Shown here one piece after another: positions 14,719 through 42,204 of a stretch of 64,000 nt of DNA. The notes under the pieces are model-generated. The model was given only the letters and a program-made list of their open reading frames with translations, ran no database searches and was not told where the DNA came from. Both the position numbers and the translations under genes were made by a program. Positions within the stretch are counted from its first letter, which is position 1. Every line of letters begins with the position of its first letter. The DNA comes from Amphiscolops sp. MND2022. Taxonomy: Eukaryota. The stretch is from NCBI GenBank assembly GCA_964187785.1, contig OZ076418.1, forward strand, positions 15,748,001 through 15,812,000, in the 5' to 3' direction.

Positions 14719-15626
14719 TGTAACGGCTGCTTGCCCTTATCCTGCGCTGAGGCTTGACAAGCTTTACGCCGCCCTGATCCGTTGCTTAGTGCTGTGGACC
14801 GTCACTAAACAATTCCTGGTTTTCTTGTTTAAAGGACTGTATCTTTTGACTGGTGGGTCCGATGTGACCCGTGGAATCTCCTGCGATTCCGCTTTGCACT
14901 GAATTGGATCCGATGTGATCCTGCACACACTTCCCTCACAGTATCTTCACGCGCTCCGGCTCTCCAACTATGAGAGTAGCTACTTAGTCGCTCTAACTCT
15001 AGCGAAAAGTTGTGAAGATTGAGAAGTAGATTAATTAGTCTCGCGGTCCTGAGACCCAACTTGACTATAGCTATTCCGTGGAGAAAATCTCTATCTAATA
15101 ATGGTATAAACGTGGTTTACAATTCTACAGTAAATATAAGTTGAAATATGTGGTATAAATAAATGACATTTGAGTGAATTATTATAGTTATTGGCTATGT
15201 AAACAAAGAATGTGGTGGTTTTGGCATGTTGGTTTGGTGGGCTCTAAAGCATGTTTACACTATGTAGATATCATCAATTCAACAGAGTTACATTCTAATG
15301 TGGTCATATGGGTAAATAGCAATGTTTACATTTTTGTCTCAATGACCTTGAATACTACACATGTGAGGGGTAAAGAGGGTTATAATAGGTGGATGACCTT
15401 GAAACTCGGCCGGTGTGTTTGTGTTAGGTACTTGCGTATGTGTGCCAAGTTTCATGGCTCTATGACTAAGAGACTTTGAGAAAACCCATTTGGGGGGGGG
15501 TTTCCCCATTTGCAATGTGAGGTTTTTCTTCAAATTTTCATCTAAGTTTTTTGGAGTTTAAGTTTTGTTTCTCAACCAGCAAGTTCTGAATTGAGTTTCT
15601 CTGCCTTCTGATGACTGGCGCCAACA
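14719..15626 (-). repeat. 3' LTR of the BEL/Pao element
   Basis: Minus strand TGTTGGCGCC..CCGTTACA; near-identical to 18919-19826. Confidence 0.95.
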
Positions 15627-18250: not shown

Positions 18251-18616
18251 TTGTTCATATGACTCTTTTGTTCCACTGAGGGCTTTCGAGCTTCACAACT
18301 GTTTCTTGTAGGCTTTGTCACTTTTCCCAACTCTGCAATTTCTCAGATACAAAGTGTCAACTGCTCAATCCGGTAATCAATCGCCAATTCTTGAAGAATC
18401 AACCCAATACTGTCGATTATACTTGCCTTCTTTGACGAACTTGATTGTTTCGGTGGATCTTGTCTCTCTGACTTGATACCTTGGCTTTACTTGGTGGATT
18501 TACTTGCACTGACGTCTTAGACCAGATCTTTGCTTCAATCAGGAATACGTTCCCAAAGAATACAATTCGTCTCAAAACTAGAGTTGATGCACAAATACCT
18601 CCAGAGTGCCGCTAAA

Positions 18617-18784
18617 GCCCAACTCCCAGAGTACACAATAGCCCAATCTCCCAGAGACACAGTAGTCCAATCTCCCAGAGACACAGTAGCCCAATCTCCC
18701 AGAGACACAGTAGCCCAATCTCCCAGAGTCACAATAGCCCAATCTCCCAGAGTCACAACAGCCCAATCTCCCAGAGACACGAAA
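18617..18784. repeat. 24-bp tandem repeat x7 in the BEL/Pao leader
   Basis: Unit GCCCAATCTCCCAGAGACACAGTA with few variants. Confidence 0.95.
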
Positions 18785-18850
18785 TCAGATACTCCAAGAC
18801 CCAGTTCTTGGGCAATCTTCTGTTGTCTACCAACGAGTCGTCTTCTTCTA

Positions 18851-18918
18851 GTCCGGGTCGTCCACCAACGAGTTGTCCGGGTCGTCCACCAACGAGTGGT
18901 CCGGGTCGGCGGACCAAA
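18851..18918 (-). repeat. Tandem 24-bp PBS-like repeats (3 units including the PBS)
   Basis: GTCCGGGTCGTCCACCAACGAGT(T/G) x2, then GTCCGGGTCGGCGGACCAAA. Confidence 0.85.
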
Positions 18919-19826
18919 TGTAACGGCTGCTTGCCCTTATCCTGCGCTGAGGCTTGACAAGCTTTACGCCGCCCTGATCCGTTGCTTAGTGCTGTGGACC
19001 GTCACTAAACAATTCCTGGTTTTCTTGTTTAAAGGACTGTATCTTTAGACTGGTGGGTCCGATGTGACCCGTGGAATCTCCTGCGATTCCGCTTTGCACT
19101 GAATTGGATCCGATGTGATCCTGCACACACTTCCCTCACAGTATCTTCACGCGCTCCGGCTCTCCAACTATGAGAGTAGCTACTTAGTCGCTCTAACTCT
19201 AGCGAAAAGTTGTGAAGATTGAGAAGTAGATTAATTAGTCTCGCGGTCCTGAGACCCAACTTGACTATAGCTATTCCGTGGAGAAAATCTCTATCTAATA
19301 ATGGTATAAACGTGGTTTACAATTCTACAGTAAATATAAGTTGAAATATGTGGTATAAATAAATGACATTTGAGTGAATTATTATAGTTATTGGCTATGT
19401 AAACAAAGAATGTGGTGGTTTTGGCATGTTGGTTTGGTGGGCTCTAAAGCATGTTTACACTATGTAGATATCATCAATTCAACAGAGTTACATTCTAATG
19501 TGGTCATATGGGTAAATAGCAATGTTTGCATTTTTGTCTCAATGACCTTGAATACTACACATGTGAGGGGTAAAGAGGGTTATAATGGGTGGATGACCTT
19601 GAAACTCGGCCGGTGTGTTTGTGTTAGGTACTTGCGTATGTGTGCCAAGTTTCATGGCTCTATGACTAAGAGACTTTGAGAAAACCCAATTGGGGGGGGG
19701 TTTCCCCATTTGCAATGTGAGGTTTTTCTTCAAATTTTCATCTAAGTTTTTTGGAGTTTAAGTTTTGTTTCTCAACCAGCAAGTTCTGAATTGAGTTTCT
19801 CTGCCTTCTGATGACTGGCGCCAACA
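18919..19826 (-). repeat. 5' LTR of the BEL/Pao element
   Basis: Direct repeat of 14719-15626, followed on the minus strand by TT and the PBS. Confidence 0.95.
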
Positions 19827-22800
19827 TGCATGTAATGTCAACAACCAGGTAAGAATCTCAAATGCTTAAAGTCACAAAACGAATTGGGAAAATTACCGGA
19901 ATCACATAAACCAAATGGAGAAATCGCATTAGAATTCGCGAGACCTTTTCAAAATGCACACCAAAAAGTATTTGTTAGTATCTGTAGATAATCACTCAGG
20001 GTGACCTGACGCTTCATTTTTACCCAAACCTACCACTGAGAAAGTAATTAATTTTTTTCAGAATGTATAGCTGTGAATGGGTTAGCATAAAAAATCCGAA
20101 CTGACCCGGACACAGTATTTGAAAGTAAAAAATTTAATTATTTTCGCACGGAAAATTTTATCGAACACATAGTATGCCCAGTTAGAGACCATAGGGGAAA
20201 TGGTAAAGTACAAAGAATGTTCCGCACAATCAATGAGAGATTGAGAACGAACAAAGCACTGATAATCTTGTAAAGGAAAAGGGATTGTCAAAAATACTAC
20301 TTGCGCTACGGTCGGAAAAGGGTTCCGACGGAAAATCTGCATTCGAAAAACACATATGCAGAGAACCAAATACGCCAAAATCACGCTTAATTGAAAAATG
20401 TATTTTAGAGAAAGATCATGCCGTAGAGGTTGAGCCGGAGATTTATAGTGAAGAGGCAGACTCGACAATACTGGTGAGGGAAAGAGTCCGAGAAACGAAA
20501 CTAGAAAGTGCATTTGAAAAAGTGGGAGGGGCAGATTGTGAAGCAATCCAGCCACACAAAAACACTACTACCAAACTCAAGTAAAACGGCGACAACCTAC
20601 TCTAAACGTGATATAGCAGCAGGCTCCAGAATAGCAAGGAAAGAGAATGAACCATGAGTGAAATGGCAAACAAAGCGGAAAAGGGAAAAAGAAAAAGAAG
20701 AGCAATTGAAAGTGATCAAGAGTCAGAAGACTTAGGTCAAGTTCCCAACCCAGAATTGTATATAGCCCCGACTCTAGAAGTATACAAAAACAGCAACGGA
20801 AGAAAGGAAAAGGATCCGGAACAGGAAATGACGAGAACACAACAAAACATTGTGATAAAAGAAGACGTTAACAGCAGCATTGACCCAGAAGAGTCATCAG
20901 CGTTTACCAAAGAACGAGAAGACATAATCCGAGAAAAGACGAAGCCCAAAAATTCCCGGTATCGGGAACTGTGAAATGGGAGAAAGCAAGAGTAAAGTGT
21001 AATTGTTGAAATGCCATGTTGAAGCATGTTGTCAAAACCGAATAAAACCCCGGTACCCTTGCCTTCCGTATTTAAAAGGGGAGTGTTGTAGATGTTGAAT
21101 TCCTATTCACAATTAGTGATGTAAAAAGACAATTTGTAGAAAATATGTATTTAATAACAACCTGCCAAATGTAACCCAAGTTGCAAAGTTGGCACAACTG
21201 CCAAAACTGAGTTTATCGTTCATAATACAGTCTGCACACGTATTCTTTTCTTACTCGAATTGCAGTTGACACACAGGTCTATAACAAAAACCAATTCCAG
21301 AAAGTACAATTATTCAACACAACCATTCATAGTTTCTCGGTAACTAGTGTAGCTCAAGTTATTTGTGCATATCACCAGCATTTTGACCCATCTGAACAGA
21401 TGGCGCCCCAAAACGTCAGAGATCATCTTCGGTCAGTCGACACATTTTCTACGTTTTTTCTGCAGGAGTAGCAGAAGAACTCGAACCATTCCATTCCCGG
21501 TAAATAACTCTCGGGTCTCCTCCGTAAGCACAACATTCAAACAAAAATCTGGAGATTTTCCGTGATATTTTAACTATTTCGTTTCGAACACTTTCTTTAC
21601 CAAAACTGTGCTAAAAACACCACGTTTCTTTGATATTCTAATGCCGACTGTGCTGAAATTTTGGCTTTTGAACCTAGTTCATTGGAAGTTTTTGATGGTA
21701 AAGGACTGCATTTTTTAACGTATTCTAATAAGAGTTGCTCTTGAAATCAATTCTTGGGAAGAAAATGAATCAAATTGCACATGAAAGTGCTCGAGGCTTG
21801 TACTGGATCTTTTGAAACGTCTTTCAAATATCTTTTTTGAGCTTTCTCAGATAAGTTCGGTGGATGACCTCTATGTTCTTTTGATGAAGATCTTTTATTC
21901 CAATGGAAACGTCTGTAGACCGACTGTACACCAACTTTGGCCTAAACCCAGTTCTTCGGCAATTTTTGATGGCAGAAACCTGCATTTTTAAATGCAAAAC
22001 TTTGACAAGTTAAACTAGAATCTGGCGGCGCTGCTGTTATTGCTGAGATTTTGACTGACGTGAAACGTAGAAACAAGTAAAATGATTCCAACTACGCATG
22101 ATTTTGTTCTCAAATTTCATCACAGCTGTATTCAACTTTCGGGAACTATACTGTTTCTCCGTTTCTTAATCAAAGTATTGGAGAACTTCTGGAAGTTTTA
22201 CCAAAAATTTCTTCTACAAAAACCACAGTAGCACTGCGTTGGTTTTCCTATACTGTTACAACAAAAGGTCTCAAAGAGAATCGTCACAAAAATCGGAGTT
22301 CAGTTTTTTTTCAGGTCAGTTATGTTCAAAAACATCTCACAGTGTCAAAATTGCCACAAGCTTGACTTCAATTAAATTTCTTGACTTATATTTGGTTTTC
22401 TAAAAAACATCAAAATAACCAGAGCCGCGAAACACTTTTTATAGAAGTCGCACTACCCTAGAAAGTCTTTCTCAGAATTGTAGGAAAAACTCTTATCAGT
22501 TTCACAGGATCGAAGAATAACCAAAGATCAAAGTCACAAGATCGAAGTCAAAATGGAGTCCTCTTAAGGACTGTCAAATTGGCAAAAATTGTGTGAAAAC
22601 TTACTCGGTGAGTCGCATGTTGCGGAAAAAGCCTAAGGGGGACTTTGTGCTCTCAAAACGCTTTGTTACTGCTAAGAATTGAAAGGATTTTGAGCCAAAA
22701 TTCTTTTATTGAAAATTCACATTGTACTGAAAGACCAAAGGGGGACCTTTTCGTTGTCCCTGAACCTTAGCAACCATTGCAAAAAATGGAATGCAAAATT

Positions 22801-24380: not shown

Positions 24381-24446
24381 CTCGGAAATGGTTCTAACTT
24401 TTTAACCTCTTTTTCACTTTTTAACTTTTCAACACTGAAACGTGAC

Positions 24447-25992
24447 TGTGATAATCCTCTAAGGACTCTGCATCAGATTCTTCGTTTGAGTGTATTGTTA
24501 CATCTACATCTGATTCAGCCCGAAACATAGGCTTAGCAGGATGTCTCAAGTCTTTCATTTTAGAAGCTCTTAGAGGATGATTTTCATTTTCTGAATCTGA
24601 ATTTTCGTTTAAAGATGCGTGAACTCCTATAGACTTGTTAGTTTTAGACCCCGACGCTTGGGGTTCCTGATTTTCATTAAGCTCTGATCTTGGGTTTGTT
24701 ACTGTCGATGCAATTTTGTTTGACTTGATTTCTTTCAGAATTTCTTCAAACTTGTTGTCTATTTCTTCTCTCATTCTCTCGATTCTATCATTATTCTTTT
24801 GTTCTATAATCTGAGTCCAAGCTTGGATTTCGTTACTAATTTGGCTTGGTTCAACCATTGGGTTTTCTGAGACGTTTTCACCTAAATTCTCCTGTAAAAC
24901 TGAGTTAAAATTAGTCAAAGTCTCATTACCTTGAGTTGACGTATCTACTTGTGCCTCAATTGGGTTTCTGTCTGGAGACGGTGTTTCTAGCCTTCTAGAT
25001 CTCCTGTTTCTCTTATTCCCCATCTTTCTCAAGTGAAAACGATCGATTTGCAGGGTCAAGAATTTGAATTTGAGATGAAAGTTTGTATGAAAATAGACTG
25101 TGTTGTTTAGGAAGTCCAAATATGAAGATGATTTACAATGATTGCTTTATGGTCCAGTAAAAACAGACTGGACTTGAGGAAAGTTATTCAAATTGTGTTA
25201 GCTCCTTCTATTTCTAAAGGAAATCCAAAAATTACAAAAGGATGACACGCAATTTTACTAGCATCATTCCCGGGAAAACCTAATAATAGCGCCTCGTCAG
25301 AATGTCGTCATCCTATTTATATACTATGAGTCATCAAATCATGACATACAGAAACGATTCCGCTGTCTAAAAGACCCTAGAAAGGTATTAAACAACGATA
25401 TTTTATGGACTTTTACCACTATATATGGAAGCGTAAAGTTAATCCTTCAAATTAAAAGGAACATAGCGAGAAACGCACAATGCCGAGTACTCTCTACTCC
25501 TTGAACCGTGGGATGACGCATATAAATTTGGATGAGAAAATATGTATACTGACGTATATTCATCACTGCATAAACCGCATAATGACGCATAATGAAAGTC
25601 ACAAATACGTATAGTGACGTATACTCATTAATGGTTGAAACACATAATGACGTATACTGAGAGTTACAAATGCGCGCAGTGATGCATATTCAATAGTACT
25701 CATATCGCATGATGACGTATCCAATTAATACCATTCGTTCAGAATGAAACTGCACTGCACATGTGTTATTTGAACTAATAAAATCATCATTAAGGCTTTT
25801 GGAATTGCCCAAAGTACATCAAGATGTTACTTTTACAAAGTAAAACAATTAAGAGACCCTGATTAGAAGTAATATATTTACACAAGTTACATGACTAGTG
25901 GATGAGTTTTTAGAGTTTGACACAACATTGTAGGCGTTGTTTATCTTCTTAAAGATGCACACCGGACCCATCGCACCTTTGGGGACGCGACA
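24447..25992 (-). repeat. 3' LTR of element C
   Basis: Direct repeat of 38815-40360; contains an open copy of the gag N-terminus (ORF 24421..25119). Confidence 0.97.
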
Positions 25993-27004
25993 GTCCCGCG
26001 TTCTTGAAGATAAACAACGCGGCTTCAAATCCGTCTATGAAGGCTCTGGGTCTGACTCCACGGTCCCTTACTGTTTCTTCATTATAAGCTGTCGCCCCAA
26101 GATAGTCACCCAACGTTTCTAGAGCCACTTGATCAAAGGTGCGTCCACACCAATCGCAATACCCAGAGACGTTGGGCATGACCGTTGGGAACAGTCTGAA
26201 ATTCTGTCGTTCATTAGTCGGCATTAGTAGGATGTTGGTGCTGTGTAGAACATTGAACGGGAAACCTGCTTGGACTACTTGTTGAAATTGATCGTTGAAG
26301 TTGACTTGAGGAATTCCCATGTTTCTAGGGGGTAGATGTATCACTACTGGTGTGATGTCATTGATGGCCGGGTACGTTATTCCCTCTGGGACAAAAGTTG
26401 CTTGAGGGTAAACCACTTCTGGTTGATGAATCGGCAGGTTTACAGTTTCTTGAGCGTCTGAATTAATTGCTTGAAGTTGGTGTGAATCATGTGTTTCACG
26501 TGAAAAATTTGGGGGGTAAGTGGGCACTGGCCTGGCGATCTCATTCGGCTGTTGTATTGTGGCTCTTGGTGTAGGCAATATTGCTGCGACTGGACGCCCA
26601 ATGCTGTTCAGTTGGATCCTGGGTTCAGCACTAAAATTAACAGGGGACATTCCAATCCCTTCAAATTCCGAATCTATGAAAGACAGCGGAGATTCAGGAG
26701 AGGAGGAAGGGCCCTCTTCTATCAGATCCATAATATCCCTCTCGATACGAGTTCCAGCCGTATCTATAGATCCTGATTGGTCAACATGGTCGGTGTTGGG
26801 AAATAGTGACGCTGTTGCTGCACCCATGAAAGCAGTCATCATGTTTGTCCCCATCGTGTTGATCCTGAATTTCTCGTCCAACTGGGGGATGTTGCCAGCT
26901 TCTACCACGAACTCGTCCCCAGATCCACTGGAGATGTCGATGACATCAGGTGAAATAGGCGAGTAGCCCAAATCTTCATCCAGGTTAAATTGCAGGGGGT
27001 TCAT
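25949..27004 (-). CDS. ORF3 of element C, 351 aa, unknown function
   Basis: Intact ORF with ATG in GAAAATG context. Acidic and P/S/Q-rich, with a SIM-like VIDISS near the N-terminus and CDWC near the C-terminus. The last 14 codons lie in the 3' LTR. No signal peptide or TM segment seen. Confidence 0.75.
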   Translation of the reverse strand: MNPLQFNLDEDLGYSPISPDVIDISSGSGDEFVVEAGNIPQLDEKFRINTMGTNMMTAFMGAATASLFPNTDHVDQSGSIDTAGTRIERDIMDLIEEGPSSSPESPLSFIDSEFEGIGMSPVNFSAEPRIQLNSIGRPVAAILPTPRATIQQPNEIARPVPTYPPNFSRETHDSHQLQAINSDAQETVNLPIHQPEVVYPQATFVPEGITYPAINDITPVVIHLPPRNMGIPQVNFNDQFQQVVQAGFPFNVLHSTNILLMPTNERQNFRLFPTVMPNVSGYCDWCGRTFDQVALETLGDYLGATAYNEETVRDRGVRPRAFIDGFEAALFIFKNAGLSRPQRCDGSGVHL

Positions 27005-27779: not shown

Positions 27780-28040
27780 AATTGTATGCAGCGTAAACCG
27801 CAGGGTGCTGAGTATACGTCACCACTCAATCCGCATACTGCCGCATAACCATAATCTGCAATTCCGCATCCTGCCGCATAGTCTTCATTGCAATTTCGTA
27901 TACCACCGTATAATCATTGTTGCAATTCCGCATACTGCCGCATACTCTCATACAGTGAATTGTTGGTAGCTTTATGATGAGTCAGTCAATCACTCTGACA
28001 GAAGTGATTGACATTTAATTAGCCAATCAGATTGCAGTAT
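27780..28040. promoter_or_regulatory. Candidate divergent promoter between ORF3 (-) and the antisense gene (+)
   Basis: Cluster of CCGCATA(C/G) motifs with ~40-bp degenerate units, and AGCCAATCAG (CCAAT box) at 28021-28030. Confidence 0.45.
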
Positions 28041-28304
28041 TCTTTTGGTATATTTGCTCAAAGCTCGTTTCATTTGCTTCTTTGCCTTGTTACGCCACGC
28101 CTTTTGCATTGTGTCTTTCGTTTGAACAGTCAATAAAGTGAAAATAGTACGTCAGTATTTTGTCTAACACGTTACAGATCAAAACATTCTTTTTATCTGT
28201 CCCAGTTTCAGATTTATTTCTAGATTCGTTTAGTTGATACTCTTTATCAGACATTCTACTCCTTAATTATTCATCGTTAATTACATACTCTTCGCATCTT
28301 TTTG

Positions 28305-31300
28305 ATGGAGGAACAACAGGAGGGAAGTTCCCCGGGGAAAAGGAGAACGAGGAAAGGACAATCACCGCAATACTTTGGAGGAAGAGACTACAATCCTTCA
28401 TTTTGGTCTGATTCTGGTAAGTTCAACTTTCAACATGATTCGGTTTAGTTGATTTAGAGGAATTTTGTTCTATTGAGTTGGCCAGACTCAATAAATGAAA
28501 GTGATCCGTGTTTTCGCAGACCAATTTTGAGTTTTTTCGAAACGTTTCCGTTTCTAATTTCTAAGTAGCATCCGGTTTTCTTTCATTTCCTGTCCCCGCG
28601 TCCGGTTTCAGTCAGCATAAACCGATTGCCACTCGCTCAGTTTCATTTTGGTAAAGAATTTATTTGTTTCAGTCGAACCAAAGACCAATGAATTATCGAC
28701 ATCCCATTCTCCAGTTAAGGTTTATACACCTTTGTTGACATCTTCCCCCAAGAGCTCCGCTGTCCCCGATACGAACAATTCACCAATTACTGCTCCGCTC
28801 CAAATCCGCGAGGAGATCAGTATAGAGAAAGAAACGTCGAATGACATCTCTATTCAGCAGTCAGCAACCCCGAATACGTCTCAAGAGCCTGTAGAGGAAG
28901 GGAATCCTACCCCACCACCAGTTAATCCTGAGTCAGAAGTTACTTCAACGGAAGGTATGGAGGGATCCTTTTCCAACATCAGTCGTGAAATAGTGGATGA
29001 ATTCATTGATCAGGAACCCCCGCAAACACTTTCCTCACATACTGATCCATACACTTCACAAATTGCTGGGCCTTCTCAACCGACTGCAGTAACTCACAGG
29101 GCAGATCAAAATGTGCCACATTCTAGTGCATTACCCATGATGTTTCCATCTGAACAGGTTGGATTCAGTGGCGTCATTGTGCCAGGGGCGGGTCATGGGA
29201 ACATCAGCGTTACCAAGAGAGAAATTCTCACAATAAGCAGTTTCCTAGGGCGGATTCCACCTGAGTATGTTCTTGGAGACGAGACCGGACCAGAGCAACC
29301 GCTGACACTAACGATTGTGGATGATATGGAGACTGCCCCTATGGTTGGAACGTCTAGTCAAGAGGAAGTGATATCGCACGACCAAGCCAGGGCTCATTCT
29401 GATGAACTACAGGAAGAGCACGTCATAGCTAGTGGGAAACTTCGACGACCACGATATTTTCTAACGGGAGCAATGCTTAGAAAACATCCATTTTCGAAAT
29501 TTTCTGCCACTGGTCCAATCGACAAAGACAAGACTCCCCATAAGTGGTGGTGTCGGGTTTGTCGAGTTGAACTTTCTCTCATGAGCAGAGGCAGCCTTGA
29601 ATTATTATCTCACTACAAGTCCGAAACACATCTAGTGAAGGAACATCGGATGCGAATGGAGATACCTGGTATGGCGCTTTTCGACAAAGAAGGCAGGGAA
29701 ATGTATGGGATTCAACTTCAAGAAGCCAAGAAAAAGGCCAAGAATAACTACCCAATCGCACCTCAACTAGACTCATGCCATCCCCTTGTGGGACAGGATA
29801 CCATCCCCAATTTCAATACGGTTACCAACCCGACGGATAAGGTCCTTTCGCAAATCTGTATTCTTGAACACGGACTCCGACATGGTGGTCATGTTAAAAG
29901 CTTAATCGGAATTTATGGTGAGCTGTCACGACTGACTTCTAGCGACGGGGCGTGTGAACTAAATTGGAGTCAAAAGCGACTTTTCGTTAGTATTATTTTT
30001 TTTGATTGATAACATCCACTCCTCGATTGAAAACAGAGTAACCTTTCAGAAAGTTACCTTTTGAAGGAAAATGCATTTACTATAAATTAATAGTGTACTT
30101 TGTTTGTTATACAGGGCACCTTCGTCTACATGTTTCGGGAACTGATCGGATATTGTGCAACTGCAATAACAGCTTCCGGACACTATTCTCTCGCTTTACA
30201 GCACACACCCACCAACACGTTCCTGATCCTTAATTTCTGGTCTGGCAACGTACTCCATCACGTTTGCCTAGGAAATGCTCCTCGTGGGATGCTACTGCCC
30301 AGGAAAACGTTGTCTATAATTTCGTCGTTATTCAGTCTTTTCGAAGAAGCCCCAATTTGTACCGCCTTGATTGACTTTGGTGATAAATTAGGTGATTGCC
30401 TGTCAAATTGCCTCCCGGGAAACCAAGATTATCGAGCGCCATGATTTTCGGACTATACTCGATTATCTCTTGATGAAGCTGAGAACTGCCCTCGACCGCG
30501 ATTGGTTGAAGAAATTACCACTGCTACATGAGGTAATTAGCATACCTGGTAATTTCTGATTTAGTGCTGTAATCCTTTTTTATGTAGTACCCATCTTCTT
30601 TTTAGATTGTGATCCGTCTGGAGTACTCCCTTCAAGATGCCTCTTTGATTATTGAGCTGTTATCCAACAACTGGGATCATGTGGTTGATCACCTTAATCA
30701 GGTGGCAAGACTCCCTGTATACCGGTTCCATATGCGAGAGGTAATTTGTTTGTTAATTAGGTATTGTATAAAAACTCAACGCATTTCTCTTTGCTCAATG
30801 GTACTTTCTGTTATAGCCAAACACACTGGATGAATGTTTCCGCCTCGACACGGCCTACTTAGCCCGCCTTTTCGTCATTCGTTGTGTTCTTGACCATTGT
30901 TAGTTACCACGTTTTTATATACTTTCCTTTTATTGTGTCGTTTTCTGTCTTCGGAGTTTTGTACACGTGTACTCTCTTGTTCCAGGAATTCAAATCCCAA
31001 AATCCACAATATCGCGTACTTTTGTTTTTTCTCGTATATTCATGAGTAATCATCATTCTTCAATCCGCATTAATGCGTATGTCTAGTCCCGTTCAGTCAG
31101 AATAACCCAAACAGTTACTCTGCTGTTTTTGTATATTGACGTATAGTCACTACTCCTTGAAACGCATGATCACGTATAATCAATATATCTCATTCAGTAT
31201 AGTGGCGTATAATCACCATTTGTATCTTTTCCGCATAGTAACGTATGATCACCATAGGTCATTCCGCATAGTGACGTATAATCACCATAGGTCATTCCGC

Positions 31301-32631
31301 ATAGTGACGTATAATCACTATGCTTTGCTCCGCATAATAACGTATAGTTATTATCTTTGTTTCGTGTAATAACGTATAATCGTGCAGCTTAGCATCAGAG
31401 AATTACGTTTCACCGTGATAATTATGCACGTGTTTTTATGATGACGATTTCTTCTTCAGCTTATTCTTAGTACATTCCTGCTAGGTAGAAGCAATACTAT
31501 TGTAACTTTTGGTGTGTTTCAGATACTTCAGCCTTCTCCGAAGTCCAGAAAAGTGTAGATGGTGGATTCCGTGCTTTCAGCCAGTTTGCTATTTTCATTT
31601 ACAGTCAGCTCCAAAGTATCTTGCCTGATACTTCGCTTGGGAGTATATCTGATTGGGATAATTTTCTACAACTGGACCTGGATCGGACAGACTTGCCCTA
31701 CAAAGCACCAGACGATTATGTTCTTAACGAAGATTTTCACAAATTGGTTGCAGCTAGTAAACTTCCTCGTTCCAGTAAATTTGTAGAACAGTCCATTAGC
31801 TTTGGCAAATCGTTCTGCAAACAGTTGCTGAGACATGAAAATCTCAAATGCAAACTTGTCAAAGGACTGTCAGCCTTTGATCCCGCTGTCCTCCTCGTCG
31901 GACCCGAAATTAATTACACTACTGCTATTGAGAGACTGACAAGTCACTTTGTCACTACTAATTTGATTTCCTCAAGCTTTAAGGTGAAGGTCGTTAGTCA
32001 GTACCGATCACTTGCGGCTAAACTTCGTTCTGATGACCGCCCTGAGTACGATGATTGGATTCAATTTCTTGCTTCCAACTACGAGCTTCAACGCCGACCA
32101 GAATTATTTCAATTGTTTAAATTCTCGAGCCTATGCTTGCCTCCACGAATCGAAGTGCCTCCACCAATTATCGTTCCGATGGAAGGTTTAGCGTCTGACG
32201 AGGAGAGTTTTCAATCTTGCGTCAAAAGCCTCCAGATGTCTTACAACTCCATTCCTCATGTTTCCAGCCTTTATCGGGATCCCAAATCAATAAGTCGGGT
32301 TTTCCGTCTCTTGGGTCGAGGGGCCGATCTATTGGCTGATAGAAAATTTTCCATTTGGAACTTCATGAAGGGAAGTGGAGTGCGAAGAGCAGCTTTGCTG
32401 GGGAAGTTTGAAACTGGATATCGCAAGGCAGTTTTACAGCATGATAAGCCTACTGTCTCATCTACCTCAACAACTCCGAGTGTCAGTAGGGCTGGAAGTG
32501 TAAACAGTTCCCCGTCTCCTGACCCTAGTCTTAGCAGGATTAGTGTGTCACTGAATCGTTGCTCTAGTTCTTCAGTTGAAGATGCGTCCAAGAAGACTAA
32601 GTCCAAGATTGTGAAGTCAAAGAAAAACTGA
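28305..32631 (+). CDS. Six-exon antisense gene inside element C (about 1055 aa; BED/TTF-like zinc finger, hAT-transposase-like); one +1 frameshift in this copy
   Basis: Exons 28305-28416, 28673-29985, 30115-30532, 30606-30740, 30817-30898 and 31523-32631. All five introns are GT..AG with matching phases (1,0,0,0,1). Exon 3 needs one frameshift near 30410-30420. Zinc-finger-like WWCRVC..LLSHYKSETH at about 29545-29630. Confidence 0.8.
31135..31380. repeat. 33-bp degenerate tandem repeat with TGACGTATA cores in intron 5 of the antisense gene
   Basis: TTCCGCATAGTGACGTATAATCACCATAGGTCA, about 2 near-exact and several degenerate copies; same motif as LTR U3 (39880-40090). Confidence 0.85.
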
Positions 32632-32816
32632 TTGTTGATTGTAGTATATGGTTGATTACTGTTTACTTTTCGTTCTCTGCTTTGTTTATTCCCCAATTCT
32701 GTCACGTATTTATTCTTTCGACAGAGAAATTGGGTTGTTGATAGAAAGCATCATACTCCCTGGTATTTATTTGAAGAAAAAGGGGAGATAAAAAGAGATG
32801 TTTGTCTGTATTTGTT

Positions 32817-35800
32817 TTAATATCTGTATGAGTCGGAGTAATTTGGGTTGGGGTTAGGACGTAAGTTGTATTTTTCACCACGAGTTTTTATGGGTTCTTC
32901 TTGCAATGGGGTATTTCGGGAATTTTCTGGAGTTTTTTGAGTATCATCATCTGTTGAAATATTTGTATCTTTTTGGGTTTTTTGGGTATTGTTATCATCA
33001 TCATTTGATTGTTGTGGAATTTCATCAGCATGATTTCCGTGATTTTGATCTGGTTCAGTGGTCTGATCCACTGGGCTCCCCCCACTATTTTTTGAAGATA
33101 CTGGGGAGGGTGGGCGGCTATTGTCGGGTATTTGAATTGGCACATATTCGGTATCCTCAGTAGTGTGTATTGCATCTGAGGGAATGTCATCAAAGGGATT
33201 TGCTCCAAAATTCGTGTTCCATGATTGGGCATATAGATCATCATTTGCTATAGTCATTTGATCATCTTTTTGCCAGTCGGTTTCACGAACAAAAATGTCT
33301 GCTAAAGGGGCCTGCGGTGTGAATTTCCGCAAACGAATCCGATGTAGTAGTTGGGTTTTATTTGTGCCAAGTCTCCTCACAATGTAGTTATTGTTAGGGA
33401 GCACTTTTTCAACTTTATAAGGTCCACACCATCTGAATTCTCGGAATGGTATTTTCGTTGCTTGTGTATCGGCTTTTGGATTAAGAATATAGCAGTGATC
33501 TGTTGTCTCCAACGGGGCTGCTTTTGCTTTTCTATCGTAGTAGGCCTTGTATTTAAGGTAAGATTGCATGATATTCTTTTTAGTTTGGTCTAAAAGTGTT
33601 CTCATGCGCTTTTGAATTTCTTCTGCAATGTCAGTTTGTGGTTGATACCTCGGATTTGGATTGTATCCAAGTTTGTAGTCAAGGATATTGTGTGGTATGC
33701 GGCCATGGAAAACTCGTGAGGGTTCACAACCGAGTGATGCATGGTATGTTGTGTTATGATTAAGGACTGCTAGAGGAAGATATTTGTGCCAGTTGTTCCT
33801 GAATTCGCCTGTGGCGGCTTTTAGGTGTGTTTTAACTGAGGCATGGGTTTTTTCTAAGAGTCCTATGGTTTGTGCATGTTTCATTGTGGCATGTTTCATT
33901 TCGATTCCAAGCACTGCCGCAATTTCATGAGTGACTTGTGCGTTGAATTGAGTGCCTAGATCCGGGATTATAGTTGTTGGAAGGTAGGTGTGTTTGCATA
34001 AGATATCCATTATGACTTTTGAAACTGCTGTTGCGGTAATTCGAGTCGCAGGATAGGCAAACAAATACCTTGAGAAGACATCTATTGCTGTGATGATGTG
34101 ATCGTAGCCTCCGCTTGGGGGGAGGTTTGGCAAAATATCCATCTGTAAGATGTCTTTCGGTCCAAGGTCCCATTCGGGACAATTAAGGAGTTCGGTTCTG
34201 AGGAGATCATTGTTGATACGTTTTGTTTGTATACAAATCTGACAATTACTGACCCATTTCTTTATGTATTTGGCCATACATGGGTAGTAATATTTTTGAC
34301 GTGTTTCTTGAATCATCTTGGTAATTCCTGGATGGTTTGAGTTATGTCCATGGAGGGCTTGAAGTAGTTCTTCAAGAAGTTGGATTGGTAAGAGGATTTG
34401 ATAATGCGAGATCATTCCTGTATCTGTATAGTATTTTCGTGTGAGAACTTCGTGTTTAATCTCGATTCGTGTTATGTTTTCTAAGTAGTGTTGATATCTG
34501 AAATCGGAAGCTAATTCATTTTCATCAAACGGTTCGCCTTCTATTTTGGCTCTCAGGTTTCGAAGGACTATGTCATTGTTCTGTTCAAGGCGTATCCTCG
34601 CATTGTCCTTGAAGTGTCCAGAGGAGCAGGAGATCAATCCGGATGTAGGTTTGTGAAATTGCTGTAATTCAGAGACGTCGTTCTCTGGGTCATTGTGAGT
34701 TTCAATTTGTGCTTGATTGCGAGTGTTTTGTTTTTCTTCCCAAAGTTGATTTTCATCAATTTCTTCATCAGGAAGGATGTAAATTTGTCCTTCTTCGACA
34801 ATTCCAGTTGATTGTATATTCACTTCAATTGCTTTTGTGTGAATATCGTTGCGAATTGTCATTTCGAGCTTCCCGGTTGGGTTAACTTCGGTTCTAGATA
34901 AAAAATCGGCGGCTGTGTTCATCGATCCAGCTACATGGGCGATTACAAAATTGTATTGTAATACATAATCGCATGCATTCCAAAGCGCTGGAGGAATCAT
35001 TTTCGTTTGAAAAAACCGGGTTACAGACCGATTATCCGTGAACACGATGACAGGGAAGGTACTCCCCCACATGAGGTGTCCAAACTCTACGAATGCAAAA
35101 TATATTGAGAGGAATTCTTTTGCATAGATTGACATTTTCGTTTGTGTTGGATTGAACGTTTTTGATCCAAACGCAATGGGTGCGTAGGTTTTTCGTTTGG
35201 ATTGAAGCTTCTGATTGGGATCGTCTTCAATCATGATGGCATATCCTGCAGCTGTGAAGCTTGCATCGGACATGACTATGAGTTGTTTGTCTTTCAAGGG
35301 TTGTTTCAGCGCGAGTTGGCAAGAATTTTCCAAAAGTTGATTGAGGTTTGTAAAGTCTTCGACCAAGTTTGTAGGGACATAAAATTTGGAGGTTTCTTTG
35401 AGGAGTTTGAAAAACGGGGTGAGTCGTTCTGAAAGGCGAGGTATATAGTTTCGGTAATATTTCAAGAATCCGATATACCTTTGAAGTGCCTTTTTCGATT
35501 TTGGGAATTTGAGTTTTGCCAAAAAATCTTTCACTTTGTCGGCTTGAGGGGCAACTCCATCTGATGTGATTGTGCGTCCCAAAAAGTCGACTTGTTTAAC
35601 TCCGAAATGACATTTCGACATGGAGAGTTTCAGTCCGGCATTCCGGATGCATTCAAAAACAGTTTTGATGTTTATACACAATTGTTTTGTGTCGTTTGCT
35701 GCTATGCCGATATCATCGACATATTGGGCACATTGATCTGCTTTAATTGCTCTGTCTAGGTATTCTCTCATGAAGCTTGAAAATGCGGAGAGAGATCGAC

Positions 35801-37709
35801 TGAGACCCTGGGCAAGGCGTCGATAAGCACATGTTCTGCTTGCAAAGTTAAAAGCGAGCATCTGGATAGATTGGTAGTCGGCCATTTGGAGGCAGTGGTA
35901 AGCCTGGGAGCAATCCAGTTTGCAGAAAAGCTTTTTTCCTGCCATGTGTTGGGCTGCATCAGATAGGGTGCTTACCGGGTGGTTATTATTGGCGTAATCT
36001 TCAGTGATAAGATTATTGATTTTCCGGAGGTCGACTAGGAGTCTAAGGCGCCCATTTGGTTTGCGTTGTGCAAAAATCGGGCTTGCATATTTGGAAAACG
36101 GTAGAGTTGTGATTATACCGTACTTGTGTAGAAGCGCAAGTTCTACTGTGATGTCATCTTTGAGGTTGATTGGAGTTGGCAGACTCTGGCTGTAAGCTGG
36201 TCTGTCGTCGTTGGGTGTTAATTTCACTTTGAATTCGCGGTTTATACCGATATCAAAACGGTGTCTGGCGAAAATATCATGGAATTCGACGAGAATTTCT
36301 TCAATCTCTTGTTGTTCGTCTGAGTTGAGTGTTGTGTCAGACCAGTCTAAATTTGAGAGGAAAGCTTTCCTGGATGATTCATTGTCATGTGGGTTGAGTT
36401 TTTCAAGTTCTTTTAACTCGAGGAGTTCGTTATATATACGTTGTTGTATCTGAGTGTATGTTGCGGGATCGCCTGGGTCTTCTGGGGTAGGGAACCAGTA
36501 CGATTCTTGTTCAGGAGTTGATTGTGGTAGTTTGAGGAGTTCGTTGATGTAGACTTCTGTGGTTTCTTCATGTTGTATCATAAACGATAGTACTGCTGGG
36601 TCTACTGGTTGGATGTGTTTGATTTGTTCTGGGGTCAGAATTTTTAAATCCTCTAAATGGGTGTCAATGGTTATTGTATATGGCAATTCTGAACAATTGA
36701 TGATCTGGTAGCCGATAGCATTATTATTAACTGTGCTAAGTGATGCTGTAATAAAAATACTATCGTGGTTTTCAAATTGTTGTGATGGAGTGACTAGTCC
36801 GGTTGCATTATGGTCCATCAGGTGAGGCATTTTGCTTGCTATAGCAAGTGTTTCGCCTGGCCTGAGTGTGTAGGTATTTTCTGCAAACAATGGTGTTGCT
36901 TGCCGTATTGCTGTTTGGGTATCGGGTTTCAGTTGCATTGAGAGGTAAGGAAAGGTTAAGATTCCTTGTGTGACATCGAAAATTGCATTGTTTCGGCGAA
37001 GGAAACACAATCCGATGAGCGGGTTTGGTAGGGTTTTCATGATGATGAAGTTTTCCTTCAACATGAAGTCTGCGACTTCGAACTCTAGTAATACTGTACC
37101 AATGGGGACTTCTAGTTGTCCATTTGCCACAATAATTTGGAAGTTTGGTGGAGGACCAGTTTCTTTTATCGCATCGTTTGCGAGCAATTTGATTTTGTTG
37201 AGGTCTTGTTCGGAGATTGCACTTGTGAGAGCTCCTGTGTCAATAAGACCATCAAGTGTGAGGTTTTGGAAGTCCATTGGAATGTAGTACATGTGTCGTT
37301 TGCGCTTCAATGTCAAGGATGTTGAAATTGGGAGGTATGACAAGTTGCGTTCTTTGTCAAATTGTAGGTGTTCAGCTAGGTCTTCACTTAGAAGGGGTTG
37401 TTTTTGATCATTGCAAGAAGTTTTGATAGTGACATGATTTTTAATAGGTGAATCGTGGTGAATATTGAAGTCTGGGTCAATTTCAGGATGGGTTTGTTGT
37501 TTTGTGAAGTAGTTGTCTGGAGCATCACATAAGAGTTCGTATAAGTCTTCTGAGTGGTTATCCGTTGAGTGTTGAGAAGTTTGGGTGTTTGATTCTGTTT
37601 GTACGAGTGTTGTTTTTGTGAGTTTTGGGCTCAACTGATGCTGCCAGTCATCAGATGAGTTTGGTTTTTGTGGTGATTTTGTGTAAAGGCGTGGCGTTTC
37701 TAGTTTAAA
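32817..37709 (-). CDS. pol of element C (PR-RT-RH-IN), open over its whole length
   Basis: LIDTGALTSAI protease; LLVDLRKIN, KLDCSQAY and QYVDDIG RT; SDASF, TDNRS and ADFLSR RNase H; HGHNSNH..CQIC, MDILP, IDVFSRY and IIPDLG integrase; WCGPYKV GPY/F motif. The frame is open upstream to the slippery site. Confidence 0.97.
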   Translation of the reverse strand, partial: FKLETPRLYTKSPQKPNSSDDWQHQLSPKLTKTTLVQTESNTQTSQHSTDNHSEDLYELLCDAPDNYFTKQQTHPEIDPDFNIHHDSPIKNHVTIKTSCNDQKQPLLSEDLAEHLQFDKERNLSYLPISTSLTLKRKRHMYYIPMDFQNLTLDGLIDTGALTSAISEQDLNKIKLLANDAIKETGPPPNFQIIVANGQLEVPIGTVLLEFEVADFMLKENFIIMKTLPNPLIGLCFLRRNNAIFDVTQGILTFPYLSMQLKPDTQTAIRQATPLFAENTYTLRPGETLAIASKMPHLMDHNATGLVTPSQQFENHDSIFITASLSTVNNNAIGYQIINCSELPYTITIDTHLEDLKILTPEQIKHIQPVDPAVLSFMIQHEETTEVYINELLKLPQSTPEQESYWFPTPEDPGDPATYTQIQQRIYNELLELKELEKLNPHDNESSRKAFLSNLDWSDTTLNSDEQQEIEEILVEFHDIFARHRFDIGINREFKVKLTPNDDRPAYSQSLPTPINLKDDITVELALLHKYGIITTLPFSKYASPIFAQRKPNGRLRLLVDLRKINNLITEDYANNNHPVSTLSDAAQHMAGKKLFCKLDCSQAYHCLQMADYQSIQMLAFNFASRTCAYRRLAQGLSRSLSAFSSFMREYLDRAIKADQCAQYVDDIGIAANDTKQLCINIKTVFECIRNAGLKLSMSKCHFGVKQVDFLGRTITSDGVAPQADKVKDFLAKLKFPKSKKALQRYIGFLKYYRNYIPRLSERLTPFFKLLKETSKFYVPTNLVEDFTNLNQLLENSCQLALKQPLKDKQLIVMSDASFTAAGYAIMIEDDPNQKLQSKRKTYAPIAFGSKTFNPTQTKMSIYAKEFLSIYFAFVEFGHLMWGSTFPVIVFTDNRSVTRFFQTKMIPPALWNACDYVLQYNFVIAHVAGSMNTAADFLSRTEVNPTGKLEMTIRNDIHTKAIEVNIQSTGIVEEGQIYILPDEEIDENQLWEEKQNTRNQAQIETHNDPENDVSELQQFHKPTSGLISCSSGHFKDNARIRLEQNNDIVLRNLRAKIEGEPFDENELASDFRYQHYLENITRIEIKHEVLTRKYYTDTGMISHYQILLPIQLLEELLQALHGHNSNHPGITKMIQETRQKYYYPCMAKYIKKWVSNCQICIQTKRINNDLLRTELLNCPEWDLGPKDILQMDILPNLPPSGGYDHIITAIDVFSRYLFAYPATRITATAVSKVIMDILCKHTYLPTTIIPDLGTQFNAQVTHEIAAVLGIEMKHATMKHAQTIGLLEKTHASVKTHLKAATGEFRNNWHKYLPLAVLNHNTTYHASLGCEPSRVFHGRIPHNILDYKLGYNPNPRYQPQTDIAEEIQKRMRTLLDQTKKNIMQSYLKYKAYYDRKAKAAPLETTDHCYILNPKADTQATKIPFREFRWCGPYKVEKVLPNNNYIVRRLGTNKTQLLHRIRLRKFTPQAPLADIFVRETDWQKDDQMTIANDDLYAQSWNTNFGANPFDDIPSDAIHTTEDTEYVPIQIPDNSRPPSPVSSKNSGGSPVDQTTEPDQNHGNHADEIPQQSNDDDNNTQKTQKDTNISTDDDTQKTPENSRNTPLQEEPIKTRGEKYNLRPNPNPNYSDSYRY
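37703..37709 (-). other. -1 ribosomal frameshift heptamer U UUA AAC at the gag/pol junction
   Basis: Gag frame GAT TTA AAC TAG; the -1 frame GGA TTT AAA CTA.. is continuous with pol. Confidence 0.75.
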
Positions 37710-37720
37710 TCCTTCGATGA

Positions 37721-39391
37721 TTAATGTTGAGATCGTTCTAGTTTTGGTCTGATTGGTTTTTTGGCTTGTTTATATTCTTCTATGGTCTTCTTTTGTGCTT
37801 CTGTCAGGTTCCATTTCAGTGGACGATTTTCCATATTAGCACCGAAATAGCAGTCTTCTTCTTCGTGTCCAGGTGTGTTGCAGTTTTGGCATTTCTCAGC
37901 ATCTGGATCCTCTTCAAGTTTGCGACGTTTAGCTAACTTTGGACAGTCAGCTACTATGTGGCCTGCTTCTTTGCAGTAACGACATTGGTCATTTTTGAGG
38001 GTTTTGTCCGGTACTGTTTTGGGAGTTTGTTTTTTGTTTTTGTCTACTTGTTTTTTGTTGGTTTTTTCAGTTGTTTGTTCTTTTTTGGTAACAGTCATTT
38101 GAGTTTTGACGAGAGATTCATCAGACTCGAGACCATTGAGTTCCATTTCTCGTTCTAGATGTTTAACAATCTGGTCATAAGTACCATTTTCAAGATAAGC
38201 TTGATTAATGGATTTTTTAAGGTGGGGAGGCATTTTGGCATAGAGTAGATTCTCTATCATTTGGTGGGCGTTCTCCCCAAACGCTTTTTCGGCACTTTCC
38301 TGGAGTTCTTCTAGAAAATCCGGGAGTTTTTGGTGTTCTGGGTCAAATGAGAGTCTGTTAAATCTGTGTTTTGCAGATGCACTAGACTCCGGTTTTACAT
38401 ATTTTCTGCGAAAGACTTTCAGAATGTCTTCTAAAGTTGTATTTGGAGTTCGCTGTATATTTTTGAAGGTTTTGAGGGCCAAACCTATGAGATGGGCGTG
38501 AAAATGATTGATTTTCATGTCCTCTGTTAGGTTTGGTTGCATTCGGAGTGTTGTGTGAAACAAGTCTTCGAAGTATTCAAATTTTTCGTTTTTCTCGTTT
38601 TTTCCGTTGAAGGTGAGTGTATTTTTAGGATGAAACAGTGATTGTGGTGAGTTTTTGTTCGCCAGTTTTTCTATGGCAAGTGCTATTTGATTGACTGGAT
38701 CAAGTGGTGTTGTTGTTGAATTTGATGCATTTTGGTTTGCGTGGGATCCTGTTGTGTCGTTAAGAGGATTTTGTGAACTTTGCCTATGGAGTTGTCGGTT
38801 GGCTCCTGTCACCATGTGATAATCCTCTAAGGACTCTGCATCAGATTCTTCGTCTGAGTGTATTGTTACATCTACATCTGATTCAGCCCGAAACATAGGC
38901 TTAGCAGGATGTCTCAAGTCTTTCATTTTAGAAGCTCTTAGAGGATGATCTTCATTTTCTGAATCTGAATTTTCGTTTAAAGATGCGTGAACTCCTATAG
39001 ACTTGTTAGTTTTAGACCCCGACGCTTGGGGTTCCTAATTTTCATTAAGCTCTGATCTTGGGTTTGTTACTGTCGATGCACTTTTGTTTGACTTGATTTC
39101 TTTCAGAATTGCTTCAAACTTGTTGTCTATTTCTTCTCTCATTCTCTCGATTCTATCATTATTCTTTTGTTCTACAATCTGGGTCCAAGCTTGGATTTCG
39201 TTACTAATTTGGCTTGGTTCAACCATTGGGTTTTCTGAGACGTTTTCACCTAAATTCTCCTGTAAAACTGAGTTAAAATTAGTCAAAGTCTCATTACCTT
39301 GAGTTGACGTATCTACTTGTGCCTCAATTGGGGTTCTGTCTGGAGACGGTGTTTCTAGCCTTCTAGATCTCCTGTTTCTCTTATTCCCCAT
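37721..39391 (-). pseudogene. gag of element C, beginning inside the 5' LTR; nonsense codons at 39035-39037 and 37721-37723
   Basis: ORFs 39035..39487 and 37721..38926 are in the same frame; the 3' LTR has CAG where the 5' LTR has TAG. Capsid-like KFEYFEDLF..HFHAHL and two CCHC knuckles (CRYCKEAGHIVADC, CQNCNTPGHEEEDC). Confidence 0.88.
38797..38814 (-). other. PBS of element C (TGGTGACAGGAGCCAACC, most like tRNA-Leu), translated as part of gag (M-V-T-G-A-N)
   Basis: Abuts the LTR end ..ATCACA; resembles the tRNA-Leu PBS TGGTGTCAGGAG. Confidence 0.75.
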
Positions 39392-40360
39392 CTTTCTCAA
39401 GTGAAAACGATCGATTTGCAGGGTCAAGAATTTGAATTTGAGATGAAAGTTTGTATGAAAATAGACTGTGTTGTTTAGGAAGTGCAAATATGAAGATGAT
39501 TTACAATGATTGCTTTATGGTCCAGTAAAAACAGACTGGACTTGAGGAAAGTTATTCAAATTGTGTTAGCTCCTTCTATTTCTAAAGAAAATCCAAAAAT
39601 TACAAAAGGATGACACGCAATTTTACTAGCATCATTCCCGGGAAAACCTAATAATAGCGCCTCGTCAGAATGTCGTCATCCTATTTATATACTATGAGTT
39701 ATCATATCATGACATACAGAAACGATTCCGCTGTCTAAGAGACCCAAGAAAGGTATTAAACAACGATATTTTATGGACTTTTAACACTATATATGGAAGC
39801 GTAAAGTTAATCCTTCAAATTAAAAGGAACATAGCGAGAAACGCACAATGCCGAGTACTCGCTACTCCTTGAACCGTGGGATGACGCATATAAATTTGGA
39901 TGAGAAAATATGTATACTGACGTATATTCATCACTGCATAAACCGCATAATGACGCATAATGAAAGTCACAAATACGTATAGTGACGTATACTCATTAAT
40001 GGTTGAAACACATAATGACGTATACTGAGAGTTACAAATGCGCGCAGTGATGCATATTCAATAGTACTCATATCGCATGATGACGTATCCAATTAATACC
40101 ATTCGTTCAGAATGAAACTGCACTGCACATGTGTTATTTGAACTAATAAAATCATCATTAAGGCTTTTGGAATTGCCCAAAGTACATCAAGATGTTACTT
40201 TTACAAAGTAAAACAATTAAGAGACCCTGATTAGAAGTAATATATTTACACAAGTTACATGACTAGTGGATGAGTTTTTAGAGTTTGACACAACATTGTA
40301 GGCGTTGTTTATCTTCTTAAAGATGCACACCGGACCCATCGCACCTTTGGGGACGCGACA
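38815..40360 (-). repeat. 5' LTR of element C
   Basis: Direct repeat of 24447-25992. U3 has a TGACG(T/C)ATA motif cluster (about 39880-40090). Confidence 0.97.
39684..39691 (-). promoter_or_regulatory. TATA box candidate in the LTR
   Basis: TATATAAA on the minus strand, downstream of the U3 repeat cluster and about 300 nt upstream of the gag ATG. Confidence 0.55.
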
Positions 40361-42204
40361 GTGACGAATACATGAAAATTCCGGAAAACACAGGAAATCA
40401 TTCAAAATGATTGAATTTTCACTTGCACATGAAATAAATTTAGGAATAAAGGTATTCTCATTGAGAAGTCATCAAAATACAGTAACATAGCATTACGATA
40501 CATATGCCGCAACGAACTAGTGAGATCTTCCTTACTAGTCCGATTACCAGTCATTAATAAGGGTATGATTTGGTGTTACGCGTGGTAATCAAAATCCAGC
40601 AAGTGACTCTGAGAGTCTTTTAGGAATTGTCAGAAAGTAAGTTTAGGAAAATTCGATAAGTAAAACCTTGCGTTTTTCATTGTGTGGAAGAAAAGGAGAA
40701 AGAACCGAATTATGAATTATGAATAAGAAGCATCGTCAATAAATCTGGGCCTTCGTAGTTTTGAAATAAAAATCGGTATGGTTGTGTTTGCTTTTCTGAT
40801 GGGAGGAAAAACCTCCATGCTTACCATTGGTAATCATTGAAACCGACAATTGTCATCGATATTAGACAACCATTCAAGTGTTTCAGTTTTACATGGAAAC
40901 CATTGAACATTTTCTATGGTATTTCTCAATGAAATATATTTTATGTTCAAGGAAATTTTGTAGAATTTTTCGATGCATGAGAAATAATGAATGTGTGGAA
41001 AAATGACGTCATCCATTGACAAATAATTGTGATTGGATGAGATCATTCGCATCGAGTGCCACTACCAATGATTCATTAATGTGAATTGACACCTTATGAT
41101 ATTAACTATATACATACAAGAAAAATGTTACTATAACCACACATTGCTATTCATGCTCTTCCACAGTTGGCAAATGTAATTTCTTATCCTCTTTTTAATA
41201 TTTTTTTAACGTAGCGTTTCAATTTTCCGGAACAGTAGATTTGAAAAAAAAGATAAATTCTGATTAATCCAAATCAATCATTTCCTCAGAAAAAGGATTC
41301 GACATTGAAAAAACTTTGCCAACTTGTAATTACTGATCATCGCCTAGTTAGTAGTTAGTTAATTAGTCATCACCAAATGGGTATTTGGGGAAATTGCGCA
41401 ACAGCGAAGAAGGAAAAAGAACCAAACTGCCTGTGATCTGACTGGTTGCGACATCTGTTTATGCGAATAGATTTTTTCCCACTTGGCTCCAAACCCACAG
41501 ATTAGCAGAGGCACAGACTTACGTCGATGCTTTTCTGATTCCCAAACTATCAAAAGCAAATTTTTTTTACATCTTGCCGAGCAGAATATAAACAATTTAT
41601 TAATGATTTAGGCTGCTGATCATTGTTGACCGAGCACAAAAGGGAAGACACACCATAACTTAACTCATTACTTATCTGCCTGATTTCTGACTATTCGCTA
41701 AACCAATTGAATTTCCTTGAAAAGTAAATTCCTCGAAAGACCAAGTTGCAAAACCTCATGCCAATATAAATGAATCATGTGATTGGGGTTCTATAAGACG
41801 TCTATTTTTCCTGAGATATGGCCCTTTTCTGCCCCCACTGTCAATTTTTTTTCAATAGAAAATTTCATTTTTTTGTGACTCAAAACAGGAAGCTGTTAAT
41901 TTCCTAATCAAAAACGAGTGACTTCATATAAAAAAATAGTGTGAGCGAAATTTGTATTCGGATCCCAAACAGCCACCGGGAAATAAATTGTTGGTGCGGT
42001 TTTTAGTCTTTTTATTGTAATATTTTCCCTGATTTTTGAAAAAAATTGATGGTAGAGCGAAACAGAAAAAAACCCAAACATGAACATTCAAAGTTCGATG
42101 CAACTTTCAGTAAATGAGGGAGCTTAATTAAAAGCACAGCTAATTTTTTTCCAATTAAACTGGGAATCGAAAACGTTGAGTCATCCTTTCCAAGATAGAA
42201 CAAA

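Follow-up and report, generated by a model that had tools for sequence, protein, structure and literature searches.

Long terminal repeats (LTRs) are commonly regarded as control regions without coding function, and gag is sought only between them by many annotation pipelines. In Ty1, the 5' LTR already contains the start of GAG, whose frame crosses the primer-binding site (PBS); the LTR-embedded stretch measures about 14 codons. In non-chromoviral Ty3/gypsy elements, Gag normally starts downstream of the PBS. Accessory genes that overlap an LTR, such as HIV nef, foamy virus bel/bet and MMTV sag, do so in U3 only.

Here, we describe a 15.9-kb LTR retrotransposon of the Ty3/gypsy type that contains the gag segment under study and lies on the minus strand of the window, i.e. 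the whole 64,000-nucleotide stretch of DNA analysed. Very probably, the last 577 nt of its LTR encode Gag residues 1-192, in a single frame that continues through the LTR end and a tRNA-Leu site into the capsid gene and is likely translated from RNA initiated in the LTR.

Results

Architecture and classification of the element

The element comprises the following features, given in window coordinates:

38815..40360, minus strand: 5' LTR, 1546 bp, TG..CA ends
24447..25992, minus strand: 3' LTR, 1546 bp, 99% identical to the 5' LTR, TG..CA ends
40361..40365 and 24442-24446, minus strand: target-site duplication GTCAC, 5 bp, on both flanks
38802..38814, minus strand: PBS, abutting the LTR without spacer, Gag codons 193-197
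38815..39391, minus strand: Gag codons 1-192 within the 5' LTR, ATG at 39391, 577 nt inside the LTR
39035..39037, minus strand: in-frame stop at codon 119 in the 5' LTR of the window copy
37721..38814, minus strand: internal gag with capsid and two CCHC knuckles, early end at codon 557
37703..37709, minus strand: TTTAAAC, likely -1 frameshift site into pol, judged from the gag/pol frame relation in three sister copies
32817..37292, minus strand: pol (PR-RT-RNase H-integrase), open for 1491 aa counted from the ATG
28957..32631, plus strand: antisense coding pieces in the interval from pol to the 3' LTR (ORFs 28957-30009 and 32179-32631)
24421..25023, minus strand: Gag frame in the 3' LTR, open for 200 aa from the ATG, last 8 codons in host DNA

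By its pol order, its LTR ends and target-site duplication, its tRNA-directed PBS and the capsid and knuckles of its Gag, the element belongs to Ty3/gypsy (Metaviridae). Pfam placed protease, RT, RNase H and integrase, in this order, at pol positions 5-100, 410-575, 645-777 and 969-1135. The closest relative of pol with a solved structure was the Ty3 Gag-Pol (E 4.6e-47), and Gag carried a zf-CCHC match above the Pfam cut-off; a profile search returned 2425 matches. Ty1/copia membership was considered and rejected, as integrase precedes RT in that group and comes last here.

The PBS is the complement of the 12-13 nt at the 3' end of host tRNA-Leu, as read from tRNA-Leu genes of the same genome. 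These genes occur in tandem arrays with a spacing of ~220-240 nt and comprise a CAG type and a longer type left uncalled by ARAGORN. The search for a polypurine tract before the 3' LTR retrieved a purine run that is short, impure and itself coding. Between pol and the 3' LTR there are ~7 kb of extra sequence, and the plus strand of window positions 28000-32700 holds an antisense coding region that is apparently intron-split and includes a zinc-finger-like stretch. Besides, we observed other elements in the window: a young LTR element at 14719-19827, with 909-bp repeats of 99.6% identity and an 892-aa minus-strand ORF that has DUF5641 at its end, and a Gag-protease ORF of a different gypsy family at 2241-4097 (minus strand).

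The Gag frame in the LTR of this copy

An earlier note on this DNA had located the Gag ATG at 39391, within the 5' LTR and in the same frame as the internal gag. Both coordinates and frame were verified, and the LTR/PBS junction reads DYH-MVTGAN. The note's further claim, that gag is read from the LTR through the PBS, holds for the layout, as seen in sister copies, but not for the window copy itself, whose frame is interrupted at codon 119. A second gag stop, at codon 557 (37723-37721), lies upstream of the likely -1 frameshift site, and the two stops together prevent the window copy from making Gag. The 3' LTR does hold an open frame, as had been reported, yet the start of the reported ORF (24421..25119) has to be corrected: position 25119 is a TTG, a start in the bacterial code only, and the ATG lies at 25023.

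Conservation and selection across copies

When the genome was searched with the LTR-encoded peptide, 137 of the best 150 of 5678 candidate matches were stop-free, a score-ranked set that is thus biased toward intact copies. For a frame check, 20 divergent 5' copies (72-76% identity) were retrieved. Nineteen of these were open through the PBS, 18 retained the ATG, and the LTR-embedded length was 3n+1 nt (565-586) in all 20, while no common frame existed upstream of the Gag ATG.

Selection was estimated from eight subfamily representatives out of 21 aligned copies. Over the resulting 28 pairs, which are non-independent and stem from LTRs that are recombinant mosaics, codons 1-192 gave a pooled dN/dS of 0.136; single pairs ranged over 0.08-0.25, and no upper bootstrap bound exceeded 0.50. 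Synonymous sites were close to saturation (pS 0.55). By segment, the ratio was 0.06 for codons 1-20, 0.31 for codons 21-60, 0.26 for codons 106-150 and 0.09 for codons 151-192; the capsid reached 0.028 in the same comparison. Four shifted frames served as controls and returned ratios of 1.38-1.60 along with 86-191 stops; among the control frames, only the exact antisense one (0.25, 53 stops) echoed the signal. Indel lengths in the DNA alignment, being noisy, were not relied on (multiples of three in 39/65 cases in the coding part vs 60/357 upstream). The dN/dS check suggested in the earlier note thus revealed constraint on the LTR-embedded codons, and we conclude that this segment is genuine protein-coding sequence under purifying selection on the protein.

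Coding constraint had also been proposed for the LTR and the PBS, and at the LTR end and PBS this proposal needs refinement. Each of codons 190-196 is represented by a single codon in 8/8 divergent copies, with no synonymous change, which means that the constraint on these 21 nt (LTR end plus PBS) acts on the DNA. DYHMVTG is the peptide that necessarily results when att end and primer site are translated.

Sister families and the other LTR end

Among the homologous proteins listed, 117 of 120 have an xxH-MVTG-type junction. A family with 39% identity in the LTR peptide has its ATG 565 nt inside a 1.5-kb LTR and the same junction. In three sister families, whose RT is 72-75% identical, Gag begins 591, 378 and 342 nt into LTRs whose lengths are 1.8, 2.35 and 2.05 kb, respectively, and PBS and junction are the same as in the window family. 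The sister families were checked in eight copies, one of them with a frameshift in the LTR-embedded part. Some of their Pol proteins carry PF00692 (dUTPase). The LTR peptide of the window showed no pairwise similarity to that of the one sister family tested, and it had no Pfam family above cut-off and no useful Atlas match.

At the other LTR end, a further gene enters the repeat:

25949..27004, minus strand: 351-aa accessory sense ORF, crossing the plus-strand primer position and ending 44 nt inside the 3' LTR

This ORF had no Pfam match. In nine further 3' LTRs of the window family with a located start, its stop lies 13-14 codons into U3, compared with 28-35 codons in 7/8 sister-family copies. 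With Gag in the LTR and the accessory ORF running into U3, coding sequence thus covers the two LTR ends and the two priming positions across the clade. This clade-wide layout, in which the LTR contains 114-197 Gag codons and is coding at either end, is well supported.

Transcription signals and start-codon context

The following signals precede the Gag ATG:

39684..39691, minus strand: TATA box, 300 nt before the Gag ATG
39622..39657, minus strand: candidate initiator (39657-39650) and candidate variant poly(A) signal (39627-39622), from an alignment of 14 leaders

The TATA box that the earlier note had set at 39684 was found at 39691-39684, and 21 of the 25 copies read have a TATA match at -272 to -323 relative to the ATG. 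The variant poly(A)-like hexamer sits ~230 nt before the Gag ATG; the leader alignment revealed no conserved canonical AATAAA in the LTR. From the arrangement of these motifs, we infer a short R and a U5 of ~800 nt, to which the coding part would belong. In that case, minus-strand strong-stop DNA would measure at least 580 nt, and ~850 nt if transcripts started near -266.

All 25 copies read have several upstream ATGs in the interval from TATA box to Gag ATG, so that a start near -266 would require leaky scanning, re-initiation or splicing. Closer to the Gag ATG (window positions 39392-39450, minus strand), a conserved AATTCAAATTCTT lies at about -45, and a TTTTCA run, followed by AG in most subfamilies, immediately precedes the ATG. 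The region of AATTCAAATTCTT and TTTTCA-AG is a candidate for a second start site or for a splice acceptor, either of which might bypass the upstream ATGs.

The LTRs are recombinant mosaics, with some identity switches inside the coding part. In one subfamily, identity to the window reaches 97-100% only in the segment that begins 48 nt ahead of the ATG and extends to the LTR end, and it is ~70% upstream of this segment. Placing R by these recombination breakpoints was attempted and dropped, since switches fall in the coding part as well and their origin might lie in any of U3, R and U5.

Predicted structure of the LTR-coded part

The structure model, built for a natural 565-aa Gag homologue with 44 sequences (mean pLDDT 54), predicts disorder at residues 1-61, a single helix at 60-103 (pLDDT 70-88), a second disordered stretch at 105-232 and, from ~270, the capsid helices. 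The LTR-coded part is made up of a basic N-terminus (residues 1-12), a disordered stretch, the long helix (60-103) and an acidic disordered linker. The best fold matches of Gag were the PNMA2 and dArc1 capsids at E 0.004-0.016, with none at E 0.001. Heptad periodicity of the helix was weak (at best 5/13), which, together with the low mean pLDDT, leaves a coiled coil unsupported.

In this model, the att end and the PBS would fall in the predicted disordered linker between helix and capsid. Fixed DNA would be cheap for the protein at this position, which is the likely reason why the overlap is tolerated. The LTR-coded part is likely a targeting and assembly arm of Gag, composed of the basic patch and the long predicted helix.

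Solo and 3' LTRs

By hand count, 54 of the 57 best peptide matches pair as full elements, and of the three left over, one is a solo LTR flanked by an exact duplication. For an older family, 41 unpaired matches with short frames were present among 150 matches. Twenty unpaired matches of this family were tested and comprised eight solo LTRs, ten 3' LTRs, one 5' LTR and one unassignable case. Altogether, nine solo LTRs were confirmed by exact 5-bp target duplications, and they carry TATA box and ORF.

The description of a solo LTR as a promoter-plus-ORF cassette, put forward in the earlier note, is therefore accurate as to its parts, but selection on such cassettes is not apparent. We compared the 5' and 3' LTRs of 26 out of 32 pairs, leaving out six whose ORF ends were not located. 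The differences amounted to 11 synonymous and 46 non-synonymous changes, a ratio of 1.6 that is compatible with neutrality (P 0.18), along with three stops, where 2.5 were expected, and one frameshift. Thus, in young LTR pairs the LTR frame drifts neutrally after insertion, and nothing indicates that the cassette is used.

Discussion

We propose that the RNA of this element starts upstream in the LTR, between the TATA box (-300) and the Gag ATG, and that translation would run from the LTR ATG through the PBS into the capsid gene. Reverse transcription copies U5 into both LTRs; the open frame carried by 3' LTRs and by solo LTRs is then a by-product that decays after insertion, the constraint acting in the replication cycle of the element.

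A rival to this model would be a Gag that starts at the junction ATG (codon 193) or at codon 156, which would render the upstream open frame incidental. The junction ATG, formed by LTR end and PBS, is indeed invariant and could yield a shorter Gag, and capsid and knuckles lie entirely downstream of codon 193. However, this ATG is fixed anyhow by the CA end and the TGG of the PBS, and the constraint on codons 1-20 and, at a lower level, on codons 21-60 would have no place in an incidental frame. The dN/dS values and the shifted-frame controls largely refute a start at codon 193 or 156, which we consider scarcely credible. What the N-terminus of the longer Gag does is a separate matter. A matrix-like membrane anchor, consisting of a myristoylated glycine and a basic patch as in retroviral Gag, would fit the presence of Gly2 in 105 of the 107 homologues with a readable N-terminus, where it suggests myristoylation, as well as the (K/R)R(N/S)RRSRR that follows Gly2 with freely varying codons. 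Yet the sister Gag proteins begin with MPTTRKQKK, MTTRSQKRK and MPEKSQKRK and hence keep the basic patch but not Gly2, and Pfam matched no envelope-like family in the ORFs of the element. A patch for nuclear localisation or RNA binding fits the N-termini of all families and, given that Gly2 is missing in the sister families, is at least as likely as myristoylation; a membrane anchor thus appears unlikely.

Another reading assigns the LTR-coded fragment a job of its own: produced separately from solo or 3' LTRs, it might, for instance, poison Gag assembly and thereby limit copy number. Solo LTRs with exact 5-bp duplications hold both TATA box and ORF, and truncated Gag restricts Ty1 in the form of p22 and Drt2 (PMC13709905). 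The factors p22/p18 and Drt2 correspond to the C-terminal half of the capsid, arise from an internal promoter and have demonstrated restriction activity (PMC13709905, PMC4551931). The likeness to our element is that a truncated Gag might be produced separately from the full protein. But the Ty1 factors act, according to these sources, via the capsid C-terminal domain, whereas the LTR fragment is an N-terminal piece devoid of capsid, whose helices start near residue 270 and hence outside the LTR, and without a sign of selection. Besides, the LTR frame decays neutrally following insertion, the C-terminal tail of the fragment is random host DNA of 1 to ~60 residues, and 3/8 solo LTRs contain a stop, with one more match lacking residue 1. 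A separate function of the fragment is therefore decidedly improbable. We likewise regard as quite unlikely a wider scenario for this clade with both LTR ends coding, namely that recombination leaves behind a promoter, a Gag arm of 114-197 codons and a random host tail, and that such solo LTRs are expressed as a copy-number brake or as seeds of host genes.

Coding of the Gag N-terminus by the LTR, the reading we favour, has practical consequences, as annotation of gag between the LTRs would lose a third of Gag in hundreds of copies. The two ends used by integrase and the two priming positions all carry protein code. The element likely needs an unusually long strong-stop DNA as well as ribosome passage across its own primer site, which makes it a natural test of translation and priming sharing one RNA. 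It is also a measurable source of truncated-Gag open frames beside host DNA, although selection on them was not found. Exact-phrase matching in open-access text retrieved no description of a long Gag-coding U5.

With regard to known systems, the element resembles non-chromoviral Ty3/gypsy in its PR-RT-RH-IN order, TG..CA LTRs, 5-bp duplication, CCHC knuckles, Arc/PNMA-like capsid and likely -1 frameshift, but differs in that its Gag starts inside the LTR. The 351-aa ORF is comparable to HIV nef, foamy virus bel/bet and MMTV sag, being a 3' gene that runs through the plus-strand primer region into U3; here, in contrast, the LTR is coding at each end, and the gene with the long overlap is the structural one, in what is probably U5. 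A GAG start in the 5' LTR with a frame through the PBS is shared, at the family level, with Ty1/Ty2 of Saccharomyces (Ty1/copia, Pseudoviridae). These belong to another superfamily and are primed by initiator tRNA-Met, while the window clade uses tRNA-Leu and has integrase last. Where Ty1 has about 14 LTR codons, the window clade has 114-197, with a predicted helical domain. The layout is thus an extreme variant of the known Ty1 arrangement and not a new kind of system.
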